Assembly: GCA_038087875.1 (NCBI GenBank)
Contig: CM075988.1
Span: 20,276,001-20,340,000 of the forward strand
Direction: 5' to 3'
From: Malacoraja senta
Lineage: Eukaryota
Length of the DNA stretch: 64,000 bases
The notes beneath the pieces are model-generated. The model saw nothing but the letters and a program-made list of their open reading frames with translations, ran no database searches and had not been told where the DNA came from. Positions within the stretch are counted from its first letter, which is position 1. Each line of letters begins with the position of its first letter. A program made the position numbers and the translations under genes. Positions 17,455 to 59,632 of the stretch are shown here, one piece after another.

Positions 17455-17660
17455 TAACTGCAGATGCTGGTTTATACCAAGGATAGACACAAAGTACTGG
17501 AGTAACTCAGCGGGTCAGGAAGCATCTCTGTAGAAAATGAATTTGGTGACGTTTCGGGTCAAATCTGAAGTACGATCCCGACCCGAAAAGTCACCTATCC
17601 ATTTTCTCCAGAGATGCTGCCTGACCCACTGGGTTACTCCAGCACCTTGTGTCTATTTCT
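17455..17660. mobile_element. Penelope-like fold-back element
   Basis: TAGACACAAAGTACTGGAGTAACTCAGCGGGTCAGG...GGTGACGTTTCGGGTC mirrored by GACCCGAAAAGTCACC...TTACTCCAGCACCTTGTGTCTA. Confidence 0.9.
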
Positions 17661-23310: not shown

Positions 23311-23439
23311 TCTTTTAACTCGGAGCTTTGCAAGGTTTCCTTGGGTCCGAATCACAAATAAGAACTTCCATTAGTTAGCATAGATTGTACACAACGTCCA
23401 TTGGCTGCCAGTTACATTGGGTAAACATATAGAAGCCTC

Positions 23440-25589: not shown

Positions 25590-26035
25590 TTAATATTCTC
25601 ATCCTATTTGCAAATCCTTCTCTTTCTCCAGTTCTTCAGAGTTAGCAGACAAAATGTGTAGGAAGGTAACTACAGATGCTAATTTCTACCGAAGATAGAC
25701 ACAAAATGCTGACGTCACTCAGCGGGTCAGGCAGAATCTGTGGAAATAAGCAATAGGCGACGTTTCGACCTTTCTGAAGAGGGGTCTTGACCCGAAACAT
25801 CACCCAAAGCATCTTTATACAAAATTGCTGCCTGACCTGCTGAGTTACTCCAGCATTTAGTGTCTACCTTCAGAGTTAACTATTCTTTTCCAATTCTCTT
25901 TAGCTTCCCTGATTTTAATTGCTTTTACATTGGCGACTGTACCTTCAGTTGGCACGGTTCTATGCTCTGGAATTCCTTCCCTGGCTCTCTCCCCTTCTCT
26001 AAGATGCTCTTTAAAACATGCACTTTGACCAAAAA
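25590..26035 (+). mobile_element. L2 3' fragment interrupted by a Penelope-like fold-back element (25645-25867)
   Basis: CTTCAGAGTTA at 25634-25644 and 25868-25878; core CTGAAGAGGGGTCTTGACCCGAAACATC 25774-25801; L2 motif GCTCTGGAATTCCTTCCC. Confidence 0.8.
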
Positions 26036-26574: not shown

Positions 26575-26805
26575 ATTTAGACACAAAATGCTGGAGTAAC
26601 TCAACGGGTCAGGCAGCATCTCTGGAGAAAAGGAATAGGTGATGTTCCAGGTCAGGAACATTCAACAGACTGATGCCTGATGAAGGGTCTCACCCGAAAT
26701 GTCACCTATTCCTTTTCTCCAGAGATGCTGCCTGACCCGCTGAGTTACTCCAGCTTTTTGTATCTATCTTTGGTGTAAACCAGCATCTACAGTTCCTTCT
26801 TACAC
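26575..26805. mobile_element. Penelope-like fold-back element with CUGAUGA hammerhead core
   Basis: ~65-bp near-perfect inverted arms; CTGATGAAGGGTCTCACCCGAAATGTC 26677-26703. Confidence 0.9.
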
Positions 26806-39099: not shown

Positions 39100-39560
39100 T
39101 TAAGAGGCCAGAATATTACACAGTTAGTGGGGCATCGATGAAGTGTAGTCGCTGCTGTAATGTAGGAAAAGTGGCAGCCATTACCAACAATAAGCCCCCA
39201 CAGCTGGATATAACGATCAGATGGCGTTGAAGGAGTGAGATATATTGGCCAGGATACACGGAATAACATGTGTCGGAAAAGAGCTGCAGATGCTGGTTTA
39301 AATCGAAGGTAGACACAAAATGCTGGAGTAACTCAGCGAGCCAGGCAGCATTTCTGGAGAACACAAAATGCTGGAGTAACTCCGCGGGACAGGTGGCATC
39401 TCTGGAGAACACAAAATGCTCAAGTAACACATGGGACAGGCAGCATCTCTGTAGTCTGAAGAAGGGTCTCTCCAGAGATGTTGCCTGTCCCGCTGAGTTA
39501 CTCCAGCATTTTGTGTCGACACTGAATAACGCCCCGGCTCTTAAAAATAACGTCACTGGA
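39100..39560 (-). mobile_element. DeuSINE (SacSINE1-like) relic interrupted by a Penelope-like array
   Basis: GTAGTCGCTGCTGTAATGTAGGAAAAGTGGCAGCCA...ATATTGGCCAGGATAC [insert] GAATAACGCCCCGGCTCTT. Confidence 0.65.
39268..39518. mobile_element. Penelope-like element with three tandem ~48-bp arm units, a half core and an inverted arm
   Basis: Units start at 39313, 39361, 39409; TCTGAAGAAGGGTCTC 39455-39470; TSD ACAC(G/T)GAATAAC 39256-39267 and 39519-39530. Confidence 0.88.
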
Positions 39561-39669
39561 CTTGATCAGTTGTGAGCTTGCGTTACTGCCTCAATAGGTC
39601 AGTGTTCACTCTAATGCAACCTAGAGCTTTGCAAACATGTGTTTGGAGTGAGACGAACGCTGCGACTGA

Positions 39670-40230
39670 GTGCAGAAAAGAGTTATGAGAATACTGCTGG
39701 GACTTGAGGGCCTGAGATATTGAAATAGGTGGAGCAGGCTAAGACTTTATTTCTTGGCGCGCAGGTGGTCTAATAGAGGTGTATAAATCGTAAGTTGAAG
39801 AGATTGGGTGTATGCAGCCTTTTCCAGGGTAGGGGAATCGAGTACTGGAGGACATGGGTTTAAGGTTAAAGGGGAAGTGTTTAGTAGGATCCTGAGGGAC
39901 AACTTTTCACTCAAAAGGTGGTGGGTATTAGGAACAAGTTGCCAGTTGAGGTACACAAAAATGCTGGAGAAACTCAGCGGGTGCAGCAGCATCTATGGAG
40001 CGAAGGAAATAGGTAACGTTTCGGGCTGAAACCCTTCTTCAGACTGCCAGTTGAGGTAGTTGGGGCAGGTGCAATAATAACATTCGAAAGACAATTGGAC
40101 AGGTACATGGATAGGAAAGGTTTAGTGGGGTAAGGATCAAACATGGCCAAATGAGACTAGCCTAAATGGGGCATTGTGGTTGGCATGGGCTGAAGGGGTC
40201 TATTTCCAGAGCATATGACACTCTGACTTG
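39670..40230 (+). mobile_element. CR1 3' fragment hosting a 91-bp insert
   Basis: FSRVGESSTGGHGFKVKG; sequence continues seamlessly when 39954-40058 is removed. Confidence 0.88.
39954..40044 (-). mobile_element. 91-bp hammerhead-bearing mini-retroelement with perfect 14-bp TSD
   Basis: TGCCAGTTGAGGTA at 39940-39953 and 40045-40058; minus-strand core CTGAAGAAGGGTTTCAGCCCGAAACGTT 40042-40015. Confidence 0.92.
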
Positions 40231-59429: not shown

Positions 59430-59632
59430 ATGGAGAAACAAGACTGCAGATTCTAGAATGATGAGCCTGAAACAGTGCTGGCGGAACTCAGCGGGTCGGG
59501 TAGCGTCTGTGGAGGGAAAGGCTGGCGATGCTTTGGGTCTGAAGAAGGGTTCCAGCCTGAAACGATGCCTGTCCATTTCCCTCAAATGCTGCCTGACCCT
59601 CTGAGTTCCTCCAACACATTGTATTTTGCTTT
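59430..59632. mobile_element. Penelope-like fold-back element
   Basis: Core CTGAAGAAGGGTTCCAGCCTGAAACG from 59539 between inverted arms. Confidence 0.85.

Follow-up and report, generated by a model that had tools for sequence, protein, structure and literature searches.

Minimal hammerhead ribozymes have been described in metazoan Penelope-like elements, and most of these motifs are dispersed as single copies, which were ascribed to truncated elements (Cervera and De la Pena 2014, PMC4209133). Earlier work has also described target-site duplications (TSDs) of 8-10 bp, solo terminal repeats, tails and inverted 5′ copies, besides the lone, scattered hammerheads that stem from truncated Penelope-like elements (PMC4209133, PMC3846280, PMC8557442, 10.64898/2026.07.22.740005). 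Where activity has been reported for such motifs, it was low or aided by protein (PMC4209133, PMC11167929), and PAc, a Poseidon element of Anolis carolinensis, inserts in vitro without need for ribozyme cleavage (Frangieh et al. 2024, PMC11167929). A CX2-5CxxC linker is a feature of Neptune and Nematis (Craig et al. 2021, PMC8557442). Our literature search, which left most subscription papers and Repbase outside its scope, found no published work on the family described here; nor did it find any report of 5′ ends piling up at the hammerhead, or of priming by microhomology, in Penelope-like elements.

We analysed a short hammerhead-bearing insert in a window of 64 kb, the whole stretch of DNA under study, from a host that is probably a ray, a cartilaginous fish. 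The insert is very probably the last ~95 bases, i.e. the 3′ terminal repeat, of a young and very abundant Penelope-like retroelement.

A young insertion in a host repeat

The features of the locus are given below, the C of CUGAAGA (40042) being numbered +1 and the preceding base -1.

~39660-40205, plus strand: host repeat fragment (LINE 3′ end) split by the insert; paralogs align across the site, limits are approximate and contig depth is high
39940-39953, plus strand: left TSD copy; its last 5 bases (39949-39953) are also the element's own 3′ continuation
40045-40058, plus strand: right TSD copy; its first 2 bases are also element positions -3 and -4
39949-40046, minus strand: pLTR stub of a Penelope-like element, positions -4 to +94, 97/98 identical to element copy L099
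39954-40012, minus strand: remainder of the terminal repeat 3′ of the hammerhead, up to the first 3′ end site of the family (~+93 to +96)
40013-40044, minus strand: predicted minimal type I hammerhead, from its sequence, with the architecture of PMC4209133
40044-40043 with 40014-40013, minus strand: helix I, 2 bp, GU with AC
40042-40036, minus strand: core CUGAAGA, followed by an unpaired A before helix II
40034-40023, minus strand: helix II, GGGU-UUCA-GCCC, followed by GAAA
Helix III, minus strand: palindromic ACGU, for which a dimer is required
40015/40014 (+29), minus strand: predicted cut, after GUU
40027, minus strand: the one base at which the stub departs from the active element, a CpG G-to-A change within the loop of helix II

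The duplicated sequence, TGCCAGTTGAGGTA, does not continue beyond 14 bp, and the 64-kb window has no third copy of it. It encloses 91 bp (39954-40044), whose minus strand starts GT-CUGAAGA-A-GGGU-UUCA-GCCC-GAAA-C-GUU, and the exact 14-bp duplication around a 91-bp insert reported by the first-pass annotation is thereby borne out. The inserted DNA amounts to 91-98 bp, since five bases of the left TSD copy and two of the right also match the element. The annotation's start, 2 nt before CUGAAGA, agrees with the letters, but this start at -2 is uncertain by two bases because 40045-40046 match the element too. The optional tail of ~35 nt found in the family is missing from the window stub, which ends at the first 3′ end site.

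The host repeat, which we take to be a CR1 LINE, was compared with 15 other copies from the window and from fetched loci. All 15 are collinear across the site and lack the insert, with gaps of 0 bases in 12 copies and of -1, -4 and -9 bases in the other three, against 105 bases in the window copy; the repeat indeed reads through once the insert is removed, as had been claimed. Both TSD copies hold a TT that is present in none of the 15 paralogs, which dates the duplication to after this host copy had decayed.

Ortholog contigs of public runs were then examined. Contigs of runs X3 (organism C) and X16 (organism F) align up to 39953 and leave 50 and 55 letters unaligned, stopping there despite 15 available insert bases, and the contig of run X8 (organism D) aligns up to 39948 with 54 letters left unaligned; flank identity is ~92-94%. 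An empty site in organisms C, D and F is inferred from where these contigs cease to align. In run X1 (organism A; 4 differences over 435 bases) the left contig enters the insert and reaches 39974; at the left junction, which is what this run covers, no longer allele was seen. The site lay beyond the reach of X14, whose unique flank is uncovered, and of X2, whose contig ends at 39873. The runs listed as containing the locus include no RNA run. No joint across the insert was found among the 15 joints listed of 229. As far as visible, no empty site carries the 14-mer twice and the host-repeat consensus does not hold the insert. The claim of a recent, TSD-flanked insertion is thus upheld by paralogs without the insert and by ortholog contigs that depart from the window at or just before it, and the insertion is real, young and lineage-restricted.

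About 30 matches to the terminal repeat lie within the 64-kb window. Older copies at 39310-39520 comprise three partial inverted arms in tandem, then a direct arm with an internal deletion, and head-to-head inverted pairs of older-subfamily stubs are found at 17491-17644, 25703-25858, 26585-26761 and 59476-59616.

The parent element

An exact search with the 28-base core of the window copy, which has A in the helix II loop, returned 749 places in the 1.94-Gb genome, and the same core with G in the loop returned 19,101 exact copies. A 42-mer from the 3′ part of the stub was found at 23,348 places genome-wide. In about half of the first 30 loci the upstream sequence passes a pyrimidine tract and enters a frame with GIY-YIG and reverse transcriptase (RT) motifs. 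We selected 20 copies by the length of their open frames (968-1,302 codons). They are 97.4-99.9% alike over 2.86 kb, and their frames end ~120 nt upstream of the hammerhead core. The first ATG of the ORF stands at +164. A single ORF carries Pfam RVT_1 (E 6.7e-6) and then GIY-YIG (E 0.0015), in that order, both scoring below the curated cut-offs (26.4 of 29.6 bits and 19.2 of 22.6 bits, respectively). Between RT and endonuclease, the ORF linker CNRKRCNTC fits CX2-5CxxC. In 8 of the 20 copies the hammerhead repeat is also found before the ORF, in a partial tandem (pLTR), and an inverted arm accompanies 15 of 100 young copies.

The hallmarks of EN+ Penelope-like elements were all found, namely an ORF with RT and C-terminal GIY-YIG, pLTR tandems, inverted 5′ copies, an optional tail and a TSD; judged by its sequence, the family is an EN+ Penelope-like element with a Neptune-type linker. 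The linker motif points to Neptune or Nematis as its clade. The frame of L099 is open over 1,250 codons, and the 97/98 match of the terminal repeat to this intact-ORF copy identifies the insert as the end of an active Penelope-like element.

The ORFs of these long copies (L095-L114) are unusually long, ~1,210-1,290 amino acids from the first methionine, and at residues ~180-490 they contain a repetitive insert, rich in proline, serine and threonine and variable in length, ahead of the RT.

The predicted hammerhead and its helix II

The insert has the sequence features of a minimal type I hammerhead: the CUGANGA and GAAA core, a helix II, an NUH triplet and a palindromic helix III. Helix I reaches at most 2 bp in both the element and the window copy, against a criterion of 4-5 bp. 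Helix II forms in the computed fold, at -3.7 kcal/mol. An Rfam scan of the whole window gave no match at the gathering score, and the stub folded alone did no better than shuffled sequences (z 0.89), helix II being the only stem.

The young family has GGGU-UUCG-GCCC as helix II, and the A of the window copy leaves the computed stability unchanged. At the loop CpG, genome-wide counts are 19,101 copies unchanged, 749 with A for G and ~1,650 with C to T; 1,700 copies lack the C of the CpG, with a T in 97 of the first 100 listed. This pattern is that of methyl-CpG decay following insertion. Older subfamilies carry GGGU-CUCG-ACCC or GGGU-CCCG-ACCC and the triplet GUC. From older to young copies a U-A pair becomes U-G, a one-sided change, in a set of 299 contexts mostly fetched with the young core pattern, and no compensatory pair of note was found in this set dominated by young-pattern copies. 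The first-pass annotation had described a variant helix II and a GUU triplet. The letters are as it stated, but the helix is the family's own with one CpG transition in the loop, and GUU is the usual triplet of the young subfamily. Its reading of the helix II difference as a sign of structural constraint found no support, given a CpG transition in the loop and a one-sided U-A to U-G change; the latter is consistent with constraint, yet it provides no evidence for it.

In L099 (reverse strand) a pyrimidine tract at -27..-19 is predicted to pair with +3..+11 (GAAGAAGGG), with a probability of 0.83-0.99. Such pairing would mask the hammerhead core in long RNAs, and an RNA with its 5′ end near -3 would escape the mask, but the predicted pairing may be a matter of composition only.

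A sharp 5′ edge

Detailed examination covered 100-250 of the ~20,000 copies. On contig C1 we recovered every one of the first 100 exact-core matches and sorted them by rule, with two or three borderline cases decided by eye, into 45 long copies, 40 short ones and 15 short ones with an inverted arm. Short stubs thus make up 55 of these 100 young copies, and most of them begin at most 6 bases from CUGAAGA and not at the cut site. The upstream match is 0-6 bases in 39 of the 40 short copies (4, 6, 13, 6, 3, 3 and 4 copies, respectively; mode 2) and 13 bases in the remaining one. Past this edge zone, 31 of 47 scored long copies reach 290 bases upstream (a few neighbours being scored twice), and the stop rate per base is roughly 60-fold lower. 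Among the 19,101 copies genome-wide, 3,066 have a base other than A before GT, 1,980 a base other than C before AGT and 6,883 an exact long upstream match, from which we estimate that about a fifth of all copies start at exactly -2.

We counted 169 starts at the predicted cut site (+29) and, as a control, 86 at a position four bases further on. When 30 of the cut-site loci were viewed, many proved to be inverted joins or internal deletions, and ~3 have a TSD ending beside +29. Given these counts and the many deletions and inverted joins, ribozyme cleavage accounts for at most 1-2% of 5′ ends. The 5′ end of the window copy was not made by the predicted cut of the ribozyme. Cleavage at the AUC before -3 was ruled out by eye, helices I and III being unable to pair there.

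Many 5′ junctions of the family carry filler bases. In five of the 40 short copies the first bases are partly repeated, e.g. GAAGAAGG before GT-CUGAAGA, as if synthesis had run off the end and then re-primed. For the tail-ORF junction, 28 loci out of 339 matches were examined; 6 of them stop at -5 to -1 and 16 continue further upstream. None of the 8 long-ORF copies with an upstream hammerhead starts at -2/-3.

Two-part insertions were seen at four loci (L152, L155, L156 and L164), where a longer piece (to ~+225..+283) stands ahead of a stub from -3/-4. The longer pieces often start at -4/-5 themselves, a short run of A is found at some of the joints, and the arrangement resembles template jumps from a 5′ end to the 3′ end of another RNA.

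3′ ends, duplications and microhomology

We also tabulated the ends and TSD lengths of the solo arms, as the first-pass annotation had advised. Of 116 short contexts, brought together from several sets of loci of which some were picked by their 5′ bases, only 46 have an exact TSD of at least 10 bp. These 46 distinct duplications have a median of 13 and a mode of 14 bp, 44 of them measuring 10-17 bp. Their 3′ ends fall into two clusters ~35 nt apart, at 89-96 (35/46) and 120-129 (11/46), and both clusters are common to stubs and long copies. The start of the TSD overlaps the continuation of the element by 1.58 nt on average, compared with 0.74 ± 0.15 nt by chance (n = 43, three cases with extra bases being dropped), an overlap reached in none of 10,000 simulations under a two-sided chance model. 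This excess of 3′ microhomology suggests a short pairing of the nicked target with the element RNA. The window copy, which stands outside the set of 43, has 5 overlap bases at its 3′ junction, 1-2 being typical. In the target-site logo (n = 35 and 11) the upstream side is only weakly biased, being rich in A and C and poor in T, and microsatellite targeting was not evident in the listed duplications.

Other arrays carry the terminal repeat. At L119-L129 (G000:C1:27817300-27818750) at least 10 tandem units of 138 bp each run from the predicted cut site (+29) to the ORF ATG; they are without the catalytic core, and the array could stem from an RNA that was cleaved or circular, or else from duplication by microhomology. 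At L130-L142 and at G000:C1:256829076-256831586, 231191669-231192207 and 381271263-381271788 the terminal repeat is arrayed in tandem, with periods of 384, ~275, 254 and 165 bp. The 384-bp unit contains the entire hammerhead and forms a retrozyme-like array. Tandem arrays on C1 with a 2.45-kb period were considered as full-length elements and rejected, being a tRNA-bearing host repeat that carries a stub. In three of them (L061, L062 and L064; G000:C1:3.87-4.03 Mb) the 2-2.45 kb host unit has tRNA-like sequences and a young stub with its own TSD, and since every unit has both stub and TSD, the array expanded after the insertion.

Mechanism of insertion and competing explanations

The identity of the insert with the end of an intact element, the duplication around it and the family-wide pattern of ends are direct observations. 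The window copy likely arose by target-primed reverse transcription, with endonuclease and reverse transcriptase both supplied by the element. The first-pass annotation had called the insertion consistent with this route, and it is supported as the most likely one for a recent insertion with a true TSD. The GIY-YIG endonuclease of the element would nick the target, and the freed 3′ end would then probably anneal over a short stretch (5 bases here) to the element RNA, at an internal start site close to +93. Reverse transcription would pass through the hammerhead and halt at about -2, near where about half of the young copies halt. A second nick ~10-14 bases away, followed by repair, would generate the duplication, and one CpG transition would have occurred afterwards.

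The annotation had further proposed that the hammerhead arm integrates as an independent unit. This would make the insert a non-autonomous, retrozyme- or SINE-like ribozyme unit, with its own RNA released by the hammerhead and mobilised in trans, which we consider improbable. More than half of the young copies are indeed stubs with a sharp 5′ edge, but the same 98 bases terminate about half of the young copies of an autonomous Penelope-like element and precede its ORF in tandems, and the stub has no diagnostic base of its own relative to the autonomous element except one CpG change. [quoted passage not shown] An RNA released by the hammerhead would likewise begin at +29, where only 169 starts against 86 at the control were counted, ~1% of the family, and a cleavage-released unit is already largely refuted. 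The many 3′ repeats could also be transcribed into a stub RNA that is copied in trans; against an independent unit of any kind, stubs and long copies have both 3′ end clusters in common.

Two other origins are less probable still. In double-strand-break repair of the polymerase-theta type, an RNA or DNA copy of the element would serve for a templated insertion and the fill-in of staggered ends would create the TSD. The microhomology of 5 and 2 bases at the window junctions and the filler bases at many 5′ junctions of the family speak for it, but fixed 3′ clusters, a narrow range of TSD lengths (44/46 within 10-17 bp) and a copy number in the tens of thousands are in keeping with a mechanism encoded by the element, and we regard repair as very improbable. 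Least probable of all is a longer copy shortened later, by deletion or by terminal-repeat recombination, to a solo repeat. Solo terminal repeats of rotifers have been ascribed to recombination or deletion (PMC3846280), but those lack a TSD, and here a TSD adjoins both ends of a copy only ~1% diverged. Recombination would moreover retain the start of the 5′ repeat, which in full-length copies varies widely and has no pile-up at -2.

If target-primed reverse transcription is retained, the stop near -2 calls for a cause of its own. As the most likely one we tentatively favour, as a matter of judgement, a genuine 5′ terminus of the RNA at the initiator-like TCAGT. Such an RNA start fits the restarts and the 6 of 28 tail-ORF junction loci that stop at -5 to -1, but with 16 of 28 running further upstream and none of 8 tandems starting there it also needs read-through RNAs or template jumps. 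A cap-derived extra G at the 5′ end was sought as well and is unsupported, the G before GT coming mostly from restarts and inverted joins. A block to the reverse transcriptase is, as we judge it, a possible though less likely cause; the fold of -300..+170 leaves -18..+2 unpaired, which counts against a structural block at -2. Processing at an acceptor-like polypyrimidine-CAG site we judge the least likely of the three. The polypyrimidine-CAG ending at -2 resembles a splice acceptor, the intron of the D. virilis Penelope ends at helix I (PMC4209133) and both an intron and a promoter have been reported for that element (PMC2377424); no shared upstream exon sequence was found before the stubs in the short copies listed.

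A more speculative extension, rather unlikely as a whole, would take the pile-up at the first paired base of the hammerhead as the true 5′ end of the element RNA and the stubs as integrated "strong-stop" cDNAs. Priming by microhomology at the tail site would lie near the RNA 5′ end and synthesis would run off at that end. The stub would be fixed when the jump to the 3′ repeat copy fails, and a successful, retrovirus-like strand transfer would yield long copies and pLTR tandems.

Comparison with known systems

The window copy is one of thousands, and its own value is that of a lineage-specific presence/absence marker. The family, by comparison, is young and has intact ORFs, and its ~20,000 near-identical ends form a large natural record of Penelope-like priming and of how insertion is finished. 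Two features go beyond the papers compared here: the sharp 5′ stop at the front edge of the hammerhead and the short microhomology between target and template at the 3′ junction.

The motif has the same core, the same unpaired base before helix II, the same palindromic, dimer-type helix III without a loop and the same terminal-repeat location as the minimal hammerheads in metazoan Penelope pLTRs (PMC4209133). Its helices II and I measure 4 and 2 bp, compared with 7-8 and 4-5 bp in Schistosoma, and in D. virilis helix I is also 2 bp (PMC4209133). We mapped TSDs and stub ends, whereas the available text of that report maps neither. Like non-LTR retrozymes (Li, Clavereau, Pollet 2026, 10.64898/2026.07.22.740005), the family has a type I hammerhead that comes from a Penelope terminal repeat, and monomers scattered along chromosomes. 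Retrozymes are defined by tandem hammerhead units with a cleavage-defined monomer, an organisation not found at the window copy; this is a single TSD-flanked unit, the end of an autonomous element outside any tandem array, and it starts 30 nt before the cut site.

The closest parallel for the ends is PAc. There too, tails arise from two internal start sites 30-40 nt apart and copies end away from the ribozyme cut site (PMC11167929). The ORF begins inside the ribozyme in PAc (PMC11167929) but at +164 here, and the cysteine-rich linker points to Neptune or Nematis, unlike PAc. In vitro, PAc primes without homology to the cut DNA (PMC11167929); the genomic copies studied here have an excess of microhomology, and it is in the proposed pairing of the nicked target with the element RNA that our scheme departs from that system.
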